NCBI GenBank assembly: GCA_013334245.1
Contig: JAAXXZ010000002.1
Location: 21,166-85,165, forward strand
DNA: 64,000 bases
From: Candidatus Moraniibacteriota bacterium
GTDB taxonomy: Bacteria; Patescibacteriota; Minisyncoccia; Moranbacterales; UBA1568
Direction: 5' to 3'
Each line of letters opens with the position of its first letter. Positions within the stretch are counted from its first letter, which is position 1. A program made the position numbers and the translations under genes. The notes beneath the pieces are model-generated. The model made no database searches and had not been told where the DNA came from. It saw nothing but the letters and a program-made list of their open reading frames with translations. Below are positions 50,968-60,523 of the stretch, piece after piece.

Positions 50968-51180
50968 AACTCGTCGAAAGCATGCCCCGTAGCAGAGTCC
51001 GCGAGGCTTTACGGGGTCAAAAGCCCATAAAGTCTATCAAGTCGGAATGTGGGGGCTGAATCAGGAATAGGGAATAAGGAATCAGGAAAGAACGCAAGAA
51101 TCCGTCCGAAAGGGCGGATTCTTGCCAATATGGAAGGGTTTGGTTATACTGTCTCTGTTTCAAGTTCGCTTGAAAATCAG

Positions 51181-51196
51181 ATTCCGGTGTAGCTCA
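51181..51196 (+). repeat. Direct duplicate of tRNA-Asn 5' end plus 2 upstream nt (attccggtgtagctca)
   Basis: Exact 16-nt match to 51596-51611. The two copies bracket the GIY-YIG ORF. Confidence 0.7.
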
Positions 51197-51245
51197 ACCC
51201 AACGGGTCCCCTTCGGGGGCGGTAGGGCAGGGTGAATTAAATGAT

Positions 51246-51608
51246 ATGAAGTATTTTGTTTATCTTCTGCAGAGCGAAAAAGATAAGCGTTTTTATATCG
51301 GTTCGACATCGGATCTTGAAAAAAGACTGACGTACCATAATCGCGGTTCGAACAAGTCGACACGGCATAGGAGACCGTTGAAGCTTGTACACGTCGAGGA
51401 GTACGATGAGAAGTCGGATGCGACGAAACGAGAATTTCTTCTGAAAAGTCCGAAAGGTTTTTTGGAAAAGAAGAGAATTATAGAAGATGTACGAAATTCC
51501 GGCGAACCTCAAACAAACGGGTTCCCTTCGGGTGTGGCAGAGCAGGAGAAAGGAGTTTCGTTTGATGAGAATGGTGATGTCTTGAAAGAGAATGATATTC
51601 CGGTGTAG
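51246..51608 (+). CDS. GIY-YIG nuclease family protein (tRNA-adjacent; stop codon lies inside tRNA-Asn 5' end)
   Basis: MKYFVYLLQSEKDKRFYIGSTSDLEKRLTYHN is a GIY-YIG motif. It is a paralog of the 17256 ORF. Its TAG stop is at 51606-51608, within the tRNA acceptor/D region. Confidence 0.8.
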   Translation: MKYFVYLLQSEKDKRFYIGSTSDLEKRLTYHNRGSNKSTRHRRPLKLVHVEEYDEKSDATKREFLLKSPKGFLEKKRIIEDVRNSGEPQTNGFPSGVAEQEKGVSFDENGDVLKENDIPV

Positions 51609-51671
51609 CTCAGCGGTAGAGCAGGGGACTGTTAATCCCTTGGTCGCAGGTTCGAATCCTGCCGCCGGAGC
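51599..51671 (+). tRNA. tRNA-Asn (anticodon GUU)
   Basis: Acceptor TCCGGTG/CGCCGGA, D-arm GCTCAGCGGTAGAGC, anticodon stem GGGGA/TCCCT with loop CTGTTAA (GTT), T-arm GCAGGTTCGAATCCTGC, discriminator G. A terminator hairpin follows (51681-51706). Confidence 0.85.
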
Positions 51672-51756
51672 CGACAAATGCAAGGCCACCCATTCGGGTG
51701 GCTTTTGCGTTTGCTTCGGCTCCGAGCGGAGCGAGTGAACGGTTTCACTCGCGTCA

Positions 51757-52052
51757 GGATTCGAAAGGCGGAGCGTCGTTCGGTCAGCAGACCGGACAGC
51801 GAGCCGGGGTCGAGGAATTATCCCGCGACGGCGGGATAATATTTGTGACCGAATCCGCCGCCGGATATTCAGATGTGCTTCCGTCAGGATGAGAACGCCG
51901 GAGCGTCTTTTGCCAGCAGGCAAAAGCGCTTGTCACGTCGCTCACGAACGACGTGATGAAACGGTGCCCAGCCCGAGGGGCGCGACGGCGCACCGAGAGG
52001 CGAGTCACGTCATTCGCGAACGACGTGGCGAGGGAGCATCCTGCCGCCGGAA
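51757..52052 (+). repeat. Two degenerate tandem ~130-nt units each ending in a tRNA-Asn 3'-end-like segment (aatcc(t)gccgccgga)
   Basis: The units begin cgtcaggat..gaa..gccggagcgtc (51757 and 51886). tRNA-3'-like matches are at 51851-51865 (gaatccgccgccgga) and 52038-52051 (atcctgccgccgga, exact 14 nt). Confidence 0.5.
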
Positions 52053-52375
52053 CCCTGTGCCGTTTTCTGAATTTTCAGGGCATACTGCCGTTTACGAAAT
52101 ATGATGTTATTTGATTCTTCCAGTATTTCCAAAGATAACTTTACCGAAAGATTATCCGTCACGTTCAGGACAAGTCTATTCCCGAATTTCTCGTGCAACG
52201 GCCGAAGGAATTCATCTCCCCAGGAAGGGGAAAACGTGGTTACCCCGTCAAAATCGACGATGACATCTTGATTGTCTTTGACATCATTGAGAGTCGGAGT
52301 AAATGCTGAAAGCGCCTCTTTTCCGGCCTGGCGGGAGGTGAGGACAGTCCCGAATTTTTTCAGTTCGATGTTCAT
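52010..52375 (-). CDS. STAS-like (DUF4325-type) protein
   Basis: About 120 aa with SpoIIAA/STAS-like pattern (VIVDFDGVTTFSPSWGDEFL). Immediately downstream of the GHKL ATPase gene. Start chosen at MNIELKK. Confidence 0.55.
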   Translation of the reverse strand: MNIELKKFGTVLTSRQAGKEALSAFTPTLNDVKDNQDVIVDFDGVTTFSPSWGDEFLRPLHEKFGNRLVLNVTDNLSVKLSLEILEESNNIIFRKRQYALKIQKTAQGSGGRMLPRHVVRE

Positions 52376-52386
52376 ATCGGTCAATT

Positions 52387-53112
52387 CTAAAAAGTGATGT
52401 ACGTGAAGCATCCCGAAACGGTATCCGGCGTTTCCTGGATATCAAGGCCGGTCCTTTCCTTTGAGATTTCAACGGTCGCGTTACCGGTCTGAAAGAATAT
52501 GTCCATATTCGCGATCGGAGCGACTTTTCTCACGAACTTTAGTCCGTTGCCTCGTTCCTCGGGGGCTCTTCCGGAAAGAATCTCCGTGAACGCCGTCCTG
52601 AGCGCCTCCGCATCATTCTTCAGGGATGGCTTGACTCGCTTCAACGTTTTCAGGATGCCTTGTCCCTTGTCCGCGAGAACGATCTGTCCTTTTGCGACGT
52701 CATAGCCGAAAAATATGCCTCGGATATCCGGCCAGTTGCCGATATTATGATCGTAGGAGTTGTTCCCGATTTCGCTGGTAGCCGCCACGATAAGGGAAAA
52801 CGAGGCGCTGAGGTCGGGGTTTAACCGCAGATCTCGCTCCAGATTCTCGATTCTTGATTGAAATACGGCTGTGCTGGGACAGTAAAAGTCCGGAGGGGGC
52901 AGTGTTCCATTGGGAGCGTTCAGCCACTCTATCGCCTGGTTATACAAAGAGTCTCCCAGAAAAATTCGGATTTTTCGTACTGAAAAACGCCGACTCCCAC
53001 CCGGGGTCCGAATCGCGGTCAGTTTCCCGTTCTTATCCCACGCCCTGAGCGTGGTAGGGGTAACGCCGAGTATTTTCGCCGCCTTTCCTATCGATATGTA
53101 TTCTTCGTCCAT
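52387..53112 (-). CDS. HTH_17 (excisionase/MerR-like) DNA-binding domain fused to GHKL/SpoIIAB-like ATPase domain
   Basis: N-terminal ISIGKAAKILGVTPTTLRAWDKNGKLTAIRTPGGSRRF (HTH_17 pattern). The C-terminal part carries an N-box (EIGNNSYDHN) and G-box (ERGNGLKFV) of the anti-sigma-factor kinase-like ATPase fold. Confidence 0.65.
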   Translation of the reverse strand: MDEEYISIGKAAKILGVTPTTLRAWDKNGKLTAIRTPGGSRRFSVRKIRIFLGDSLYNQAIEWLNAPNGTLPPPDFYCPSTAVFQSRIENLERDLRLNPDLSASFSLIVAATSEIGNNSYDHNIGNWPDIRGIFFGYDVAKGQIVLADKGQGILKTLKRVKPSLKNDAEALRTAFTEILSGRAPEERGNGLKFVRKVAPIANMDIFFQTGNATVEISKERTGLDIQETPDTVSGCFTYITF

Positions 53113-53215
53113 ATTTCGGAAATATATTCACAGTGTATCAAAAGTTATAAATATTGTCAAAGAATATAAAAATATATAAATCTGAATATTATATATAAAT
53201 AAATCTTTACTCCCC

Positions 53216-53239
53216 GACATCTTCGGGAGGGAGTATGAC
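53216..53239 (+). repeat. Intergenic repeat family copy R1 (core cgacatcttcgggagggagtatga)
   Basis: Identical 24-nt core to the copies at 54706 and 56541. Confidence 0.7.
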
Positions 53240-53287
53240 TTCGATAATCCATCTTCTGATTTTGCGTAGCATTCGCATGGCGAATGA

Positions 53288-53983
53288 CTACTTCTCATTC
53301 TCGATTGCCACGTTCAGGAAGAAGATCGTTTCACTTTTCAGTTTCGCGCGGGCCCAGTCTTTTTGCGGTTCACCCAGGAGTTCTCCGAGGCCGTCGAGGA
53401 TATGCCGGTCGTCCATGTGCTCAAGCATATCGACGCACTTTTGCAGGGCCTCTTTGAAGGGGAGTCCGGAACGCTGCTCCGCTATTTCGCGGTTGATCTC
53501 CCAGCCTTGTTTGAAGAAATAATACACGTCGAAGACATCGCGGCTCGTTTTGCCGATCCGTTCGTACATGGCCATGAGCTTGTGCGCGAACATGTCCGGC
53601 TCGGTCATGACGAGCATGGAAATCCCCAGAAAGGTCTTCATCTCGTAGTTCGATCCGAACTGTCTTCGGTTGATCTCGATCTTTATATTCTGCGCTCCCG
53701 CCTCGTATGAAATAACGGTAAGCAGATTGAAGCGTTTTCTATGGGAATCCACGATGACCCCGTACGTTTCGGCGATTTTCTGGATTTTCCCGAACACGAA
53801 CTCCTCCTTGGAGTCGTCCAAGAGATCGAGATCGATATCGACCGAATATCGGTCGAGACCGTAGAAGAGCATCGCGGCCGTCCCGCCCTTGAATCCGAGG
53901 TACGGAGCGATAGTCGTATCGGTATAGATATCCTTGAGGATCCGGAGCAGGATGCTCTTATGTTTGGCGTAGTTCGCAGCCAT
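53288..53983 (-). CDS. Nucleotidyltransferase AbiEii/AbiGii toxin family protein
   Basis: LGFKGGTAAMLFYGLDRYSVDIDLDL, the characteristic AbiEii NTase motif (GGTAL...S.DIDL). Confidence 0.8.
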   Translation of the reverse strand: MAANYAKHKSILLRILKDIYTDTTIAPYLGFKGGTAAMLFYGLDRYSVDIDLDLLDDSKEEFVFGKIQKIAETYGVIVDSHRKRFNLLTVISYEAGAQNIKIEINRRQFGSNYEMKTFLGISMLVMTEPDMFAHKLMAMYERIGKTSRDVFDVYYFFKQGWEINREIAEQRSGLPFKEALQKCVDMLEHMDDRHILDGLGELLGEPQKDWARAKLKSETIFFLNVAIENEK

Positions 53984-53984
53984 A

Positions 53985-54581
53985 TCATTTCGTGTTTATG
54001 AAGTTCCGGTGAAATTTCCGTACCTGTTTTTCCAGCCGCTTGTTGCCATATACGGGCAGGATTTCGAAAACCTTGTCCCAATCCAAGACATTCAGGCTAT
54101 CGAAGTAATATTCCTTGGTCACATACAACCGGTCCAGAAAAGCCCGCTCTTTCGTAGCCCAGGCGACGCCGTTTCTATGATCGATTCCCGTGGTATCGCT
54201 CAAGACGGAACTTTTCATGCGGACATAGTTGATTTTCTGACCGTTAGCCTCTATCTCGCGGTTCAGATACGATGCGACGAAGATATTCCCATAGTACTGG
54301 AAACTGACTCCTTCACGGGTCAAAACGGTCTCGAAGCCGATATAGGAGGGGGTATAGATCCGCGTCGCCAGCTCGTACCGGTCGTAGTTTTCGTCTTTGG
54401 CATACAGGCCATGGCGGACCCGTAACAGCTTCCCTGCGCGGATGTACTTCTTCAGGCGATTGGTGATGGTCGCACTCTCTGATTCGCCCCACAGCAAAGC
54501 CACGTCCTGAACGGAGAAGACGGTTTTCGATGATCGTAGCAGTATTTCCAGGAAATTTCCCTTTGAAGGTCTATTTTCCAT
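53985..54581 (-). CDS. AbiEi-family type IV antitoxin
   Basis: N-terminal wHTH and C-terminal domain typical of AbiEi (FSVQDVALLWGESESATITNRLKKYIRAGKLLRVRHGLY...). 1-nt gap to AbiEii. The track start at 54632 is possible. Confidence 0.75.
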   Translation of the reverse strand: MENRPSKGNFLEILLRSSKTVFSVQDVALLWGESESATITNRLKKYIRAGKLLRVRHGLYAKDENYDRYELATRIYTPSYIGFETVLTREGVSFQYYGNIFVASYLNREIEANGQKINYVRMKSSVLSDTTGIDHRNGVAWATKERAFLDRLYVTKEYYFDSLNVLDWDKVFEILPVYGNKRLEKQVRKFHRNFINTK

Positions 54582-54652
54582 ATATGTACTGATATGGTAC
54601 TTTAAGTACCCTTTCAGTAACAATAGTAGCATATTTTGATACTGCGCGCAAG

Positions 54653-54731
54653 GACCCGGGTTTTTGATTGCTCAAGAAAGGCTTCACAAAGCGACACTTG
54701 CGACATCTTTGGGAGGGAGTATGATGATATG
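54653..54731 (+). repeat. Intergenic repeat family copy R2 (palindrome cccgggtttttgattg + ggcttcacaaagcgacacttgcgacatctttgggagggagtatgatgatatg)
   Basis: Shares about 75 nt with R3 and the 3' core with R1 and R4. Confidence 0.75.
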
Positions 54732-54838
54732 TAACCTTGGAAACGCACCTGACTTCTTTTCTGTTCTGGTATAAGGAATTATATGGAAAAACTTGAACTC
54801 AGGAATAGAAAAATCAGAAGATCGTCGGTATACTCGAG

Positions 54839-55579
54839 ATGCCGGAGGGGCTAGTACATGGTACGGCTGTGGTTTTGCACGGTTTCGGTGGGATAAAGGA
54901 ACAGGATCATATTCTGAAGATGGCGGCCACATTCCGAGACAACGGATTTATCACGTTCAACTTTGATGCCACTAACTCTTTCGGCGAGAGTGAGGGGGAG
55001 TACTGGGACGCGCGGCTCGGGCTACACGCTGAGGATTTGGAGGATGTCGTGAAATGGGTGCGACAGCAGGTCTGGTTCAGGGAACCTCTGGCATTGACGG
55101 GGCACAGTATGGGCGGGTATGCCGTTGCTCGATACGCGGAACGATATCCGGACGAAGTCTCGATCCTTGTCCCGATCGCCCCGGTCGTTTCGGGCAAGCT
55201 TTCTTTTGAAGCGCATCATGAGGAAGACCCCGTCGCATTCGAGGAATTCAGGCGGCGTGGATTCAAAGAATCCGTGAGTCATACATCCGGTCGTCTCAAG
55301 CGTTCCTCGTGGGCGGAAATGGAGGAACGGCTGCATCATGATCTTTTGCCGGATGCGAAGAAACTCGTCATGCCGACGCTTCTGGTCGTCGGGTCGAAGG
55401 ACTTCTCGATCAGACCTCGGGATGTGCAATCACTCTACGACGCGCTTCCGGCGAGAAAAGACAACGAGATCCGGATTATCGAGGGGGCGCCGCACACGTA
55501 TCGAAGTCGGGAAGATGTCGATGCCTTGTATGAGATCATCTCGAACTGGTTGAAGGACTTGATGCTGAAGAAACATTAG
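54839..55579 (+). CDS. Alpha/beta hydrolase
   Basis: HGFGG oxyanion region and GHSMGG nucleophile elbow. GC-rich, unlike its neighbours. Flanked by R2 and R3. Confidence 0.75.
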   Translation: MPEGLVHGTAVVLHGFGGIKEQDHILKMAATFRDNGFITFNFDATNSFGESEGEYWDARLGLHAEDLEDVVKWVRQQVWFREPLALTGHSMGGYAVARYAERYPDEVSILVPIAPVVSGKLSFEAHHEEDPVAFEEFRRRGFKESVSHTSGRLKRSSWAEMEERLHHDLLPDAKKLVMPTLLVVGSKDFSIRPRDVQSLYDALPARKDNEIRIIEGAPHTYRSREDVDALYEIISNWLKDLMLKKH

Positions 55580-55636
55580 GAATAAGCCAGAAAAGGAGCC
55601 ATGCACCATTGTTGTGAACAGCTTCTATCCCGATTG

Positions 55637-55732
55637 AATCAATCAAAAACAACCAAAAACCCGGCCATCCACACGGACCCGGGTTTTTGATTGAGAAAAA
55701 AGGCTTCACAGAGCGACGCTTGCGACATCTTC
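55637..55732 (+). repeat. Intergenic repeat family copy R3 (long hairpin caatcaaaaac...cccgggtttttgattg + ggcttcacagagcgacgcttgcgacatcttc)
   Basis: Direct repeat of R2, diverging after cgacatcttc. Confidence 0.75.
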
Positions 55733-55790
55733 TGAAAGTGAGCGCGTCATTATTAGCTCTTGAAAACAAGTGATTTCGTCTGTAGCTTGA

Positions 55791-56258
55791 TTATTTTATT
55801 GCATTCAATTCGACAGGAAAATTGTGAAGATTATCACATTCGCTGCAAATGTAGGTCATACTTCCAGCATAGCTCTCATTTAATCCTGTTATTGAAATAA
55901 CAAATGAGCCTGCTCCTTTTATCCTATGTTTTTGGTCAAAATAATTAATTACTCCTATTCTGTCCGGAGTAACAAAACCTTGAAGAATAAAAGCGACCTT
56001 TAGAATAGAGTTTGAAAAAACTTCATATTTACCGGTAATGCGTTTTCCATGCTGTGATATGGATAAAATACCTTTTTCGCCTTCGAACCACGGCTTTTGC
56101 CGGTCTTGATTGCCATACACAATTTCATATTTCCCTGAAATGTTCGGATAGAACTTCATAAACAGTGAATAATACCATTCAAATATCTTATTTTTTAGTA
56201 AATAAGCAATGAATGTGGCAAAGAGTGATGAAACGATGCCTGTAATGAAAGCGCTCAT
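55791..56258 (-). CDS. Hypothetical membrane-anchored protein (AT-rich, island)
   Basis: 155 aa with an N-terminal TM (ITGIVSSLFATFIAYLL) and a soluble domain with CSEC. About 30% GC. Confidence 0.5.
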   Translation of the reverse strand: MSAFITGIVSSLFATFIAYLLKNKIFEWYYSLFMKFYPNISGKYEIVYGNQDRQKPWFEGEKGILSISQHGKRITGKYEVFSNSILKVAFILQGFVTPDRIGVINYFDQKHRIKGAGSFVISITGLNESYAGSMTYICSECDNLHNFPVELNAIK

Positions 56259-56540
56259 AGGTTCGAAAATAGTAAAATAATTAAGCCAATACTATATATC
56301 ATACCCCAATTAAACCGAAATACAATTTTGCAGGAAAGTAATTTGGATGCCAAAATGAACTAGGCACTTTGCTCCCTTTGGGCCTAATTGTTTTAGGTAT
56401 TGGTTGCTGATATAAAAAAGGGTATACACATGAAGTGGCATACGCCTCTTTGGTTAATTGCTGGTCAAGCTGGCACCGGCACCGCCCATAAGGGATGCCT
56501 TTTTGGCGCAATCCTCGATTTTGAAACAAATCTGCCTTTT

Positions 56541-56571
56541 CGACATCTTCGGGAGGGAGTATGATGATATG
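56541..56571 (+). repeat. Intergenic repeat family copy R4 (cgacatcttcgggagggagtatgatgatatg)
   Basis: Identical core to R1 and R2. Confidence 0.7.
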
Positions 56572-56777
56572 AACTCCGAAATGTACAAATATCTGTTCCG
56601 GATTAATTCATATTTTTCCGGCCCGGAAGGCATAAGGGGGGGGTGCTGACGGGACAAAATGTACCTGATGCATTTTCTGAGATCAAAATGAGAAAGATGT
56701 TAATGATTTCTTTGCCTCATTAAATTAGCTTTGACTAAGGCTAGTTTGGGGCGTAGAATCTATAAAATCATTACTTT

Positions 56778-59270
56778 ATGATTCCGGTTAGAATTAAGAA
56801 CAATTTATATAGATTTAAGAGTTTTTGGCTGTTCAAGAAATGGCTTAACAGGCCTGTATTTTTGTTTTGGGCAAATATGTTCCATGGGCATTACACTATG
56901 GATAATACTAAAAATTACATACGAATATTAAAGCCAACCATAGTTCCCTTTTTGGGATCTGTATTGTATAGCGCCTTTATCATATTTATTCTTGAGCTTT
57001 ACAATAAATATTTTCCAATAAATTCTCAGTTTTTTGATAAGGCTTCAACTGATTCATTGCTTACTGCTGTGGCTAGTCTTATGGGTGTATTTCTCGGACT
57101 TTATTTTGCAGCTCTTTCTGGCATTGCAAGCAATTTCTTAATAAGAGCAACACAGGATGTCAGAAGATTCTTTTTTTCTGCTCCCCTGGGGTTGCAATAT
57201 GTTCGCACTATTGCAATTACTGGAATTGTAAGCGTATTTTATTTATTCCTTAAATCGTTTGGGCACACCTTTCACCCCGTTGGCCTTGCTTTTCTGTCTC
57301 TATTAGCTGCATACATAATTATAAGGTTCTGGAGTATTGGATCTTCGGTTTTTAATTCAATGGAACCGGGCAGCTCCTTTCCATTTGTTAGAAAGGATAT
57401 AGAAGATTCTATAAAAGATATTGCACCACCAGGATTTCAATGGCAAACGCCATTGCTTCAAAATCATAGACGTAGATTGGTTGTTACTGATTTGGATTTG
57501 CTAGCAAACTTGGTAGATTTTGGAATTAAAGAACTCGAACTTCCTGATGAGCAGTTGCTTACAGCTATTGCTCACTTGCGATTAATCTTACTCAAATATT
57601 CAGAAAGCAAGGGAAAAATACCCAGAAAGAGTCTCTGGCATGAGACCAAAAGCCAGTTTGAGAATTGGGCATTTACTGACTCTACCCGAATTAGTCTTGC
57701 TCTAAATACCGGAACATCTATCCAGCCTAAATCAATTCAGGATTTCTTCTGGTTTGAAAATAGAGTCTTTGATATTGTCGTCAAAATACTCAATGAGCTT
57801 GGAAAAAAGAACAAAATACTATCTGTATTTCAGGGCTCTGAATATTTTATTGATGTGGCTGAAGAATATGGGGAAAATCTTGAAGAAGAAAATGTAAAAA
57901 CATTGCTTCAAAAACTAGAGGGAATTTTTTCCAACACTCATTTGGAGAAAACAGATGAAGGTCAAGTTGCGCACAAGGAGCAACTTGCACTTTTAGAAAC
58001 CCAGGGAAGATTAGCCATAGCCGCATTACTTGGGCTAATTAGACACATTGATAAATATCCTTGTGAAAAAATTTCATCGAAAATATCTGGGATTAATTGG
58101 AATTCCAAAAAGAAAGAAACTATTTATTTGACGGGACTTCCATCTTCCATGCTGCCAAGATTAGAAGAAATAGAAGCTAATCTGGAAAATGAAAAGGTTA
58201 TTGAGGGCAAGATACAATCTCCTAGATGGTATATAAAAACTCTTTGCATGCAACAGTACTTATACTCTCTTGAGAAGTATTTTATTTATATAAAATCATT
58301 GCATTCTAATTATTTTCAACGAAAATTCGATAAATTATTAGCAGAGGAACAATATTCGCTTGCAGTGCATTTCCTTCAAAGATGGCTTGAGTTTTCCAAT
58401 AAGTATCAGAGTTTAATTGGATATCTCAAAAAACAGGCTGAATGCTGTAGAAAATTTCATTGGGTAAAAGATTTGCCATTTCCAGACTTTGATTTTTCTC
58501 AAGAAGAAAAAACTGCTTTAGACAGAGAAAGAGAGGTTACTGATAAAATGATTCAGTTACTTCCCAAATTAAAATCAGCAGTAACTGGAAAAGAATTACC
58601 TGACTACTTTGGTCAAGCGCTCACTCTTGGGCTCCAAGCTTGCTATGAAGCATGCATGGATAATGATGTGGAAAGATTTATAAATATTTTCCCAATTATT
58701 TTTGATGCATCGCTGGTATCTCATGATAAAATTCGGAAAGAAGTTCAAAATTGGAGCCAGGACGATAGTAAGATTATTTACTCAACAGAACCACTGGCTA
58801 ATCTGTTCGAAATAAGTGGGTTTGCTCTTCTTTATGCGGAGCTATATCAAAAAAATGAACTCTGGGACATAACAAAAAAAACGTGGAATGCATATTTAAA
58901 AATTGTAGATGCTAAAGCGGCAATTCAGTTTATGATTGCAATTGTGGGATACCGAAATAGCTTGTTTGTCTTGATGCCCCAAGCAATTCTGAGAACAAAC
59001 TGGCAGATGAATTTTAATAGAAAAATGAAAGAAGCGGGGTTGCCAGTTTTTCCTGAAGATAGATATGGCAGAAAAGGAAAAATATCTCATAAAAGTGCGT
59101 TAATAAGAGTTATTGCAAAATGGGGAGGCCTATCAATATTTTCTGCCCAAGAAGTATTTTTCACTATTTATTTATCGAATCGTCCTGAAGCAAAAGACCT
59201 AGCTTTCCTAGATAAGCATGAGCTTAAAGAGGAGGTTGAAAAAGAGGAAAAAGGAAACATTGAAGAATAA
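56778..59270 (+). CDS. Hypothetical 830-aa protein: N-terminal 4-TM domain + large all-alpha cytoplasmic domain (AT-rich island, unknown function)
   Basis: Long ORF at about 31% GC. TM helices at about aa 55-75, 95-120, 150-170 and 175-195. No recognisable catalytic motif. Confidence 0.6.
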   Translation: MIPVRIKNNLYRFKSFWLFKKWLNRPVFLFWANMFHGHYTMDNTKNYIRILKPTIVPFLGSVLYSAFIIFILELYNKYFPINSQFFDKASTDSLLTAVASLMGVFLGLYFAALSGIASNFLIRATQDVRRFFFSAPLGLQYVRTIAITGIVSVFYLFLKSFGHTFHPVGLAFLSLLAAYIIIRFWSIGSSVFNSMEPGSSFPFVRKDIEDSIKDIAPPGFQWQTPLLQNHRRRLVVTDLDLLANLVDFGIKELELPDEQLLTAIAHLRLILLKYSESKGKIPRKSLWHETKSQFENWAFTDSTRISLALNTGTSIQPKSIQDFFWFENRVFDIVVKILNELGKKNKILSVFQGSEYFIDVAEEYGENLEEENVKTLLQKLEGIFSNTHLEKTDEGQVAHKEQLALLETQGRLAIAALLGLIRHIDKYPCEKISSKISGINWNSKKKETIYLTGLPSSMLPRLEEIEANLENEKVIEGKIQSPRWYIKTLCMQQYLYSLEKYFIYIKSLHSNYFQRKFDKLLAEEQYSLAVHFLQRWLEFSNKYQSLIGYLKKQAECCRKFHWVKDLPFPDFDFSQEEKTALDREREVTDKMIQLLPKLKSAVTGKELPDYFGQALTLGLQACYEACMDNDVERFINIFPIIFDASLVSHDKIRKEVQNWSQDDSKIIYSTEPLANLFEISGFALLYAELYQKNELWDITKKTWNAYLKIVDAKAAIQFMIAIVGYRNSLFVLMPQAILRTNWQMNFNRKMKEAGLPVFPEDRYGRKGKISHKSALIRVIAKWGGLSIFSAQEVFFTIYLSNRPEAKDLAFLDKHELKEEVEKEEKGNIEE

Positions 59271-59271
59271 T

Positions 59272-60321
59272 ATGAATAGCTTGATAAAAAAAATTATAGA
59301 AAAAATTAAACCTGTCTTGCGGGATCCTCTTTGTCTGAAAAAATGGGATTCTCCTGATCATTATGGGCATCGCTTAGAAGACAGTAATCGTCTATCCGTA
59401 AGGGTTTCAGGCTCCATGAGAAGAGATTTGTACTCTTATAATGGGGATGCTTTTATGTTCACTCAAGATATCTATGCTGGAATAATGCCATTCATGCATT
59501 ACAGAGGAAAAAGAGAAGCCTACCCAACTAAAGTAATGCCTGCAAATAAAGAGAAAGAGCAAATGATTTGCGAAGGAATTTCAGATAGAGGCAATGCATA
59601 TTTCATTGAGGATGCATTGTGTGATTTTGTTAGAAAAACAGCACAAATATTATGCACTGATGGCATTGTATTTTATGAGATAATTTATGACAAAGATGAA
59701 AATGGACAAATTGAGAGTTTTGAATTAGAAACAATCAGGTCAAAATATTTTTTCCGTTTTCTTGGAAATTATTACCAAATAATACCTTGGTGGGAGGCAA
59801 AAAGATCTCACGTTAGAGTTCAGCTTGTAAAAATTCCAAAAGACAAAATTTTAAGAATAGATATCCCTCTTGAACTTGGGGGTGGTAGAAAATTAAAGAG
59901 AGTAATCAAGCGGTTATGGAAATTGAGTAAAGAAATAATACCTATATTTCAAATGGAAGCGATGGAGAATGATAAGAGTATCGGTTTTGATATGGAAAAA
60001 TTTAGCATGGCCAAATATTTAGAAATAGCAAAAGTAACAAGAGATTTTGGGTGGAGCCAGAGACAACGAGCTGAGAGTAGTTCAATCACTGAATACTATC
60101 TGATATTGCGTCATTTAAGAACAAAGAAGGCGGAAGCTTTAATTAGGGAAAAAATTATATTGGAGTTAAACAATACTCTCAATGGACTAGTTTTAAATTT
60201 GGGCGTAAAAGTAAGTATGGACAACTTGTTTACGTTACGAGACGTGGAAAAACAAGAGGAAATTCTAAAAAAAGGAAATGTTACTTTTGTGGATATTGTT
60301 AATGCTATAAAACTAGAATAG
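59272..60321 (+). CDS. Hypothetical 349-aa protein, translationally coupled to upstream 830-aa gene (unknown function)
   Basis: ATG 2 nt after the upstream TAA. AT-rich. No recognisable motif. Confidence 0.6.
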   Translation: MNSLIKKIIEKIKPVLRDPLCLKKWDSPDHYGHRLEDSNRLSVRVSGSMRRDLYSYNGDAFMFTQDIYAGIMPFMHYRGKREAYPTKVMPANKEKEQMICEGISDRGNAYFIEDALCDFVRKTAQILCTDGIVFYEIIYDKDENGQIESFELETIRSKYFFRFLGNYYQIIPWWEAKRSHVRVQLVKIPKDKILRIDIPLELGGGRKLKRVIKRLWKLSKEIIPIFQMEAMENDKSIGFDMEKFSMAKYLEIAKVTRDFGWSQRQRAESSSITEYYLILRHLRTKKAEALIREKIILELNNTLNGLVLNLGVKVSMDNLFTLRDVEKQEEILKKGNVTFVDIVNAIKLE

Positions 60322-60447
60322 CTAAGCTTTATTCATCAAGGTTCTGACTTCTTCCATAACGTGGAGCAAAACGAAATCCGCCCGGAGCCGGAAAATGGGT
60401 TAAGTGCATTTTTTTAAAGATCACGTCTGATTCATTTCGCTTCTTAA

Positions 60448-60482
60448 CTAATATAAAAGGGTATACGTACGTATACCCTTTT
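60448..60482 (-). terminator. Perfect palindromic intrinsic terminator closing the rSAM-peptide operon
   Basis: aaaagggtatacgtacgtataccctttt. Confidence 0.75.
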
Positions 60483-60484
60483 GG

Positions 60485-60523
60485 TTACTTGCCGGCGGAG
60501 CCGGTGCTTGCGCCACTATCCAT
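60485..60523 (-). CDS. Tiny ORF 2: MDSGASTGSAGK (12 aa) with consensus SD, candidate ribosomal peptide
   Basis: Minus strand reads GAGGAGGtaaacgctATGGATAGTGGCGCAAGCACCGGCTCCGCCGGCAAGTAA. 8-nt SD-to-ATG spacing. It resembles tiny ORF 1. Confidence 0.45.
   Translation of the reverse strand: MDSGASTGSAGK

Follow-up and report, generated by a model that had tools for sequence, protein, structure and literature searches.

Tailed phages, herpesviruses, and gene transfer agents (GTAs) share portal proteins as a hallmark; the portal of tailed phages is the ring through which double-stranded DNA passes and which serves as the docking site of the terminase motor. We know of no virion portal that has a membrane partner with four transmembrane (TM) helices. 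Here, we analyze two adjacent genes, hereafter A and B, in a stretch of 64,000 nucleotides (the window, whose positions are used below) from a Candidatus Moraniibacteriota bacterium (Patescibacteriota; assembly GCA_013334245.1, contig JAAXXZ010000002.1, positions 21,166 to 85,165 of the forward strand). A and B specify a mobile, selected pair of proteins that probably form a membrane-associated complex, with a cytoplasmic subunit that is portal-like; restriction systems and integrative elements are its preferred company. Our preferred interpretation, to which we give a probability of about 0.4, is that A-B is a horizontally mobile, two-gene anti-phage module built on a membrane-tethered portal mimic.

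The predicted fold of B is the one common to the virion portals of the HK97, SPP1, Chi, 80alpha, and GTA types (PF04860 and relatives). B differs from all of these in passing no Pfam or PHROG portal model, in not being found in the phage genomes searched, in having no terminase, protease, scaffold, or capsid gene among the 25 most frequent Pfam families of its neighbors, and in being always paired with, and once fused to, a four-TM membrane protein. The libraries and literature searched describe no portal-fold protein that stands alone, with a membrane partner and under selection but without virion genes, and literature searches for portal-fold proteins in a defense role found none. Should B prove to be a portal captured for immunity, it would be the first case of this fold at work outside a virion or GTA.

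Among described defense systems, Kiwa resembles the pair in being a two-gene operon, found in defense islands, for a four-TM protein and a cytoplasmic partner of about 300–350 amino acids (aa); it acts at the membrane against phage DNA. However, the helical cytoplasmic domain of A, about 640 aa long, has no counterpart in KwaA, B is portal-like, and neither protein has a PADLOC or Pfam match to KwaA, KwaB, or DUF4868 at E-values up to 1. Zorya, like A, has a component embedded in the membrane that extends into the cytoplasm as a long helical part; a preprint describes this component of Zorya as thought to signal phage entry to cytoplasmic partners (bioRxiv 10.1101/2023.12.18.572097). Unlike Zorya, A-B has no MotA/MotB-like domain, no PADLOC Zorya match, and no nuclease or helicase partner. 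An initial annotation of this DNA had likened the pair to Kiwa and Zorya; membership in either system finds no support in PADLOC or Pfam (KwaA/KwaB/DUF4868, ZorA/ZorB), and only the general logic is comparable.

The Dallas defense system (ddgA), which acts against T-even phages, was obtained by functional metagenomics from Patescibacteria DNA, and in a T4 phage that escapes it, TerL is mutated on the side that faces the portal (Cell Host Microbe 2025, PMC12366544). An escape mutation of this type might be expected if B were a portal mimic. The Dallas authors, however, state that they saw no structural resemblance to known proteins, make no mention of a portal fold, and call DdgA alone restricted to Patescibacteria (PMC12366544). 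Because of the reported lack of structural similarity, and on a comparison made by description only, we consider it quite unlikely that Dallas belongs to the A-B family; its sequences are deposited (BioProject PRJNA1262520, Zenodo 15758252). The TERi system (TerI) of Listeria prophages blocks packaging by targeting terminase (bioRxiv 10.1101/2025.02.27.640495), but TerI, a small protein of prophages that comes with anti-TerI partners of its own, has neither a membrane component nor any likeness to portals. On the evidence presented here, A-B is a new kind of module and probably an undescribed anti-phage system.

The gene pair and the predicted structures of its products

The features of the pair are the following.

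56778..59270, + strand: gene A, 830 aa; four TM helices and a cytoplasmic all-alpha domain of about 640 aa; predicted inner-membrane protein of an orphan family
56937..57347, + strand: predicted TM bundle of A, residues 54-190 (Kyte-Doolittle peaks, charge distribution)
57348..59267, + strand: predicted cytoplasmic all-alpha domain of A, residues 191-830, with no nucleotide-binding or nuclease motif
59268..59274, + strand: A/B junction TAA-t-ATG, the stop of A and the start of B being one base apart
59272..60321, + strand: gene B, 349 aa, from the ATG that follows TAA-t; cytoplasmic, predicted tailed-phage portal fold
56731..56759, + strand: promoter-like site TTGACT-17-TAGAAT, 19 nt 5' of the start of A (consensus scan, 10/12)
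60455..60482, no strand: 12-bp palindromic hairpin with A/T runs on either side, 134 nt past the stop of B (terminator scan)

The AlphaFold2 model of B, computed from the family alignment (pLDDT 80, pTM 0.80), is of mixed alpha/beta type with a 30-residue helix and displays the wing, stem helices, clip, and crown of portals. B carries a GW-x-QR motif. The best-matching small portals are also of the size of B: 360 aa in GTA, 338 aa in GBSV1, and 317 aa in Borrelia BB1. We can thus assign the tailed-phage portal fold to B with good confidence, as far as a model allows, and B likely descends from a common ancestor with portals, although this is not established at the sequence level. Indeed, B does not belong to the portal families by sequence (Pfam PF04860, PF05133, and others; PHROG portal families). 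When 150 diverse B relatives were compared with Pfam, the best sub-threshold match was to PF04860 (Phage_portal; E 0.0014), in one of the 150. Profile searches of B against PDB sequences gave no match, nor did hhalign comparisons of B profiles with a single HK97 portal sequence or of a narrow B alignment with a portal alignment. A weak echo, co-linear with portals, came only from the profile of the 150 relatives, aligned by hhalign with 11 HK97-type portals (values below). More generally, neither A nor B has a credible match in Pfam, NCBIfam, PADLOC, or PHROGs, in agreement with the initial annotation, which could assign no motif or family to either; matches to Cas5 (E 0.016) and GerR (E 0.1) were at chance level and were discarded. 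The same annotation had described B as a soluble partner: B is indeed predicted to be cytoplasmic, but it is not a generic soluble protein, and the portal fold that had been missed changes the mechanistic picture.

Four hydrophobic segments are predicted in A (residues 54-72, 95-122, 144-162, and 164-182), preceded by a basic N-terminus with ten K/R in 52 residues. This basic N-terminus points to an N-in/C-in topology with a cytoplasmic C-terminal domain, so that, as predicted, the helical domain of A and the protein B share one compartment. The AlphaFold2 model of A, also based on the family alignment, is entirely helical (pLDDT 84, pTM 0.77). Hydropathy and model agree with the polytopic N-terminal membrane domain and the large helical cytoplasmic domain deduced in the initial annotation, whose proposal to predict both structures thus yielded an all-helical A next to a portal-like B. 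The segment TM2-TM4 is the most conserved part of A, with a column identity of 0.72–0.76 over residues 101-200 and of 0.49–0.69 elsewhere, and its LGLYF motif (residues 106-110, in TM2) is invariant in the family alignment. Structural neighbors of A in the PDB are uninformative (generic helical bundles), none that is informative was found among viral predicted structures, and we found neither a Walker A nor any other recognizable catalytic motif. The position of A 5' of a portal-like gene led us to consider a diverged large terminase, an identity discarded for an all-alpha, membrane-embedded protein devoid of Walker A. The NCBI entry for A (hypothetical protein HGB37_00970, NTW89469.1) starts at Met41 and has 790 aa. 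The family conserves residues ahead of Met41 (at least 90% of its sequences have W17 and F28, for instance), and the 830-aa start at 56778 is therefore favored.

Both reading frames and their lengths are as given by the initial annotation, and so is the single base that separates them, a spacing which suggests translational coupling; at other loci, the two genes usually overlap, by about 8–14 nt. A longer in-frame reading frame for B starts at 59218 (367 aa), but the N-terminal consensus of the family, MNNxIKKIK, begins at 59272. Promoter-like sites are no more numerous in the region than expected by chance, so the one at 56731..56759 is a candidate only. The hairpin at 60455..60482 is a candidate bidirectional terminator that would close the operon.

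A homolog of B follows the homolog of A in every locus examined, and these two genes are the only ones common to the loci. Coinheritance extends down to about 22% identity: the A protein of locus L026 is at this level and its partner is a B homolog (hhalign E 1.4e-16), and the A-like proteins of L030 and L031 are found at E 2e-64 and 5e-80. One lineage has a natural A-B fusion of 1,145 aa (P0258; L029, 8001-11438), which argues for a physical interaction of the two proteins in a 1:1 stoichiometry. This fused gene stands alone in the chromosome, near a gene for an SNF2-family helicase. In five comparisons, dN/dS was 0.06–0.13 for both genes, which are under purifying selection. The initial annotation's view of a coupled gene pair thus stands: A-B is a real, conserved module without a described sequence family. 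Between the window and L028, B is 93% identical while the adjoining A is only 80% identical, which hints at recombination inside the module. A second pair in L012 (a large gene and a 346-aa gene), suspected of being paralogous, turned out to be unrelated.

The close subfamily is small and mostly patescibacterial: A accounts for 71 clusters and B for 44, and 16 loci are present among 185,579 species genomes. Repeating the profile search with the A alignment yielded the same 71 proteins. When B served as the profile in an exhaustive search, 1,057 cluster representatives from several phyla were retrieved, 772 of them at E <1e-10, and all of those sampled were unannotated. The pair is also carried by plasmids of Burkholderia glumae (NZ_CP021077.1; WP_209954640.1/WP_209954642.1) and Paenibacillus lautus (pAZOPL1; WP_119851504.1/WP_119851503.1). 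The patescibacterial origin of most close homologs might suggest a housekeeping membrane complex of Patescibacteria, for instance for envelope biogenesis or for nutrient or DNA uptake, all the more as B could be a DNA channel and these bacteria depend on uptake from hosts. We regard this as highly improbable given the very patchy distribution in species genomes, the plasmid copies, a composition foreign to the genome, the different chromosomal sites of close relatives, and the association with restriction genes and recombinases, the last three of which are detailed below.

A neighbor census, comprising 123 proteins from 13 loci, lists the 25 most frequent of 133 Pfam families. No capsid, terminase, or tail family is among these 25, though singletons are possible beyond them, and the commonest neighbors are large serine recombinases and DNA methylases. 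B is not surrounded by a virion morphogenesis cluster (terminase, protease/scaffold, major capsid protein) such as phages, prophages, and GTAs have around the portal gene. A pattern-limited scan of IMG/VR yielded no B relative, and neither did 50,697 phage records. The portal fold, the atypical GC content, and the island location of the pair are features that a decaying prophage remnant, reduced to a portal gene and its neighbor and without present function, could also show. This origin is contradicted by the selection and conservation data, namely the dN/dS values of both genes, the lengths conserved over 71 and 1,057 clusters, and the recurrence of these two genes alone in unrelated contexts and phyla; no other virion gene appears among the listed census families, and the pair is absent from the phage collections searched. 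We give it the least credence of all explanations considered, and it is strongly disfavored together with the housekeeping complex.

Genomic company and a possible role in defense

The genes of defense type near the pair, in the window and at other loci, are listed below.

53288-53983, strand not given: AbiEii (Pfam and PADLOC)
53985-54632, strand not given: AbiEi (Pfam and PADLOC)
L008/L018: type I restriction directly upstream; one island lineage, about 80% identity
L010/L047: EcoRI-type methylase and GmrSD_N-HNH
L050: methylase (Mod) and ResIII, type III-like
L052: ResIII/SNF2-TnsA-like protein (nuclease)
L061: N6-methylase/S-subunit fusion
L063: GmrSD and DUF2779
L030: type I locus that encloses the pair, next to an AAA_15/21 ATPase
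L006 and L031: AlwI restriction-modification genes, with also a DUF4238 protein in L031
Burkholderia glumae plasmid copy: beside VapBC, between IS66 copies

The Abi system that the initial annotation placed beside the pair is AbiE; it lies 2.1 kb upstream of A, from which it is separated by a hydrolase gene and a gene for a 155-aa protein. About 25 independent loci were compared, a small and non-systematic sample; in about 12 of them, a restriction, Abi, or toxin-antitoxin gene lies within approximately 5 kb of the pair, and in at least eight, such genes are directly upstream of A and co-directional with it. The restriction systems in this position are of unrelated types, with a gap to A of only 6–32 nt (L008/L018, L010/L047, L050, L052, L061, and L063). 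The pair recurrently closes restriction operons, of five different kinds in all, which suggests a second layer coupled to restriction.

The pair was acquired horizontally. Its GC content is 0.346, compared with 0.540 in the remaining window, and the low-GC segment spans about 55.6 to 60.5 kb; the contrast reported by the initial annotation is real, but its values of 30% and 57% somewhat exaggerate it. Relatives of the window pair with 95% and 80% identity lie in different chromosomal contexts. At four independent loci (L001, L003, L005, and L006), large serine recombinases flank the pair. A patescibacterial element is shared by L001, L022, L023, L025, and L003, in which a gene for a 442-aa serine recombinase is divergent from A-B and followed by ParB_N-methylase and methylase genes; L001 has a second recombinase in addition. 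It looks like an integrative element with A-B as cargo.

Such mobility raises the question of whether the pair serves its carrier element. It could be a portal-like conduit anchored in the membrane, through which the DNA of the element is exported or imported, for example in transfer between episymbiont and host or in loading into vesicles, or it could exclude competing elements. The four recombinase-flanked loci with ParB-methylase genes nearby, the plasmid copies flanked by IS66, the insertion at tRNA-Asn, and the very nature of portals, which are DNA channels, are all in keeping with such a function. However, conservation does not extend to a motor ATPase, a relaxase, or a coupling protein, the loci having only A and B in common, and many copies have no recombinase nearby and are the last genes of restriction operons. 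Moreover, restriction genes are themselves typical cargo, so that mobility does not argue against defense. We hold the conduit to be improbable, if less so than a housekeeping role.

The proposal of the initial annotation that A-B is a candidate defense or abortive-infection module is borne out as regards its company, with AbiE in the window and restriction systems upstream of the pair in many loci, and as regards horizontal acquisition, whereas the defense activity as such is something that we infer. Anti-phage activity is the function that the data support best, and we believe that A-B is a defense system of some kind, a view that we hold with some confidence. How it would act, by what we regard as the most parsimonious mechanism, can be outlined from the predicted structures. 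B would assemble as a portal-like ring, held by A at the inner face of the membrane. The ring would engage the partners of a portal, that is, a free linear phage DNA end, a terminase-DNA packaging complex, or both, and phage DNA translocation would thereby be intercepted at entry or at packaging. The conserved four-TM bundle of A would then be the membrane sensor or effector, with an outcome of the abortive-infection type. Interception of DNA or terminase by the portal mimic is, for us, a tentative proposition rather than the expected one. The same reserve applies to the fuller scenario of a captured phage portal turned to immunity, whose tethered ring traps terminase-DNA or the end of an entering genome and triggers a membrane response.

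Several points weigh against the anti-phage portal mimic. The portal assignment relies on a predicted monomer model; the hhalign comparison of 150 B relatives with 11 HK97-type portals, which aligned 76 co-linear columns in equivalent regions at E 0.0036, has a probability of 9%, not significant by usual standards. The defense role is one that we infer from the neighborhood only, in a small sample of about 25 independent loci out of some 1,000 clusters, and one-third to one-half or so of those examined have no defense neighbor (among them, L004, L020, L026, L027, L028, L033, and L068 have no recognizable defense gene nearby). No ATPase, nuclease, or other effector motif that would account for a killing or blocking step was found in A or B. 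Finally, a terminase decoy would have to match phage-specific interfaces.

Alternatively, the portal fold of a defense module may be only a ring-shaped oligomerization scaffold. About twelve A-B units would then form a gated membrane pore that depolarizes the cell, opening on an unrelated infection signal; the module would act solely as an abortive-infection effector, with portal surfaces that mimic nothing in the phage. The 1:1 stoichiometry implied by the A-B fusion fits this well, as do the TM bundle being the best-conserved part of A, with its invariant LGLYF, and the absence of an enzymatic motif from both proteins; the defense-island context speaks for a pore as much as for a portal mimic. 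On the other hand, the pore has no apparent sensor domain, and keeping the whole portal architecture over about 1,000 clusters, though possible, is unnecessary for a mere scaffold. Nothing separates the two alternatives at present, and we deem the pore unlikely, yet a better candidate than the conduit.

If A-B is a defense module acting as a portal mimic, it would embody a new principle, the mimicry of the viral DNA gate and assembly hub, and would explain about 1,000 clusters of "hypothetical proteins" missed by current defense finders. It would then be a widespread defense family, present in several phyla and commonly wired behind restriction systems. It would also bear on the phage resistance of Patescibacteria, in which few defense systems are known. 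Burkholderia glumae and Paenibacillus lautus are culturable, which makes the hypothesis directly testable.

The island around tRNA-Asn

The pair is located downstream of dnaG-rpoD-tRNA-Asn both in the window and in L004, and this tRNA gene appears to be an integration hot spot. The features of the window island are the following.

51599-51672, strand not given: tRNA-Asn(GTT), downstream of dnaG-rpoD
52038-52054, strand not given: degenerate copy of the tRNA-Asn 3' end, 16/17 bases
60486-60502, + strand: degenerate copy of the tRNA-Asn 3' end, 13/17 bases, where GC returns to host level
53215-53238, 54701-54724, and 56541-56564, + strand: 24-nt repeat CGACATCTTYGGGAGGGAGTATGA, with a weaker copy near 55708-55753

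In L004 (7726-8001), A-B starts 199 nt after tRNA-Asn, and a search downstream of the pair for a direct repeat of the tRNA-Asn end found none. The window has about 9 kb of accessory modules after the tRNA gene (51599-60502). Copies of the tRNA-Asn 3' end downstream of the tRNA number two, for 0.11 expected, and bracket the island, which starts at tRNA-Asn and of which the copy at 60486-60502 is a possible right border. The window's island contains no integrase gene.

The family of intergenic repeats noticed by the initial annotation is real: the island has three copies of the 24-nt sequence and the remainder of the window none, with 0 copies expected. The copies always lie between island modules (MerR-like/DUF4325, AbiE, hydrolase and 155-aa gene, A-B), and between some of them, the similarity extends to 45–100 nt. 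The repeat holds a Shine-Dalgarno-like GGGAGG followed by ATG and a mini-ORF, and might either mark the boundary of a cassette or act as a regulatory site common to the modules.

The 155-aa reading frame (55791-56258, - strand) is divergent from A and has a hydrophobic N-terminus; it has no match in Pfam, PADLOC, or PHROGs, and no homolog beside A-B in other loci. Its GC content of about 0.33 is like that of A-B, with which it may have arrived in the same low-GC segment. Next to AbiE, positions 52010-53112 (- strand) contain two overlapping genes that possibly form a further small accessory or defense module; one encodes a 241-aa protein with a MerR/HTH_17 N-terminus, matched by PADLOC mad1 on its HTH part only, and the other a 133-aa DUF4325 (STAS-like) protein. 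Immediately before tRNA-Asn is a gene of the GIY-YIG/T5orf172 type (51246-51608), bracketed by a duplicated 5' part of the tRNA and its upstream sequence (51172-51231 matching 51496-51546, and 51172-51196 matching 51588-51612), so that the segment 51172-51672 looks like an insertion of the homing-endonuclease type beside a tRNA gene.

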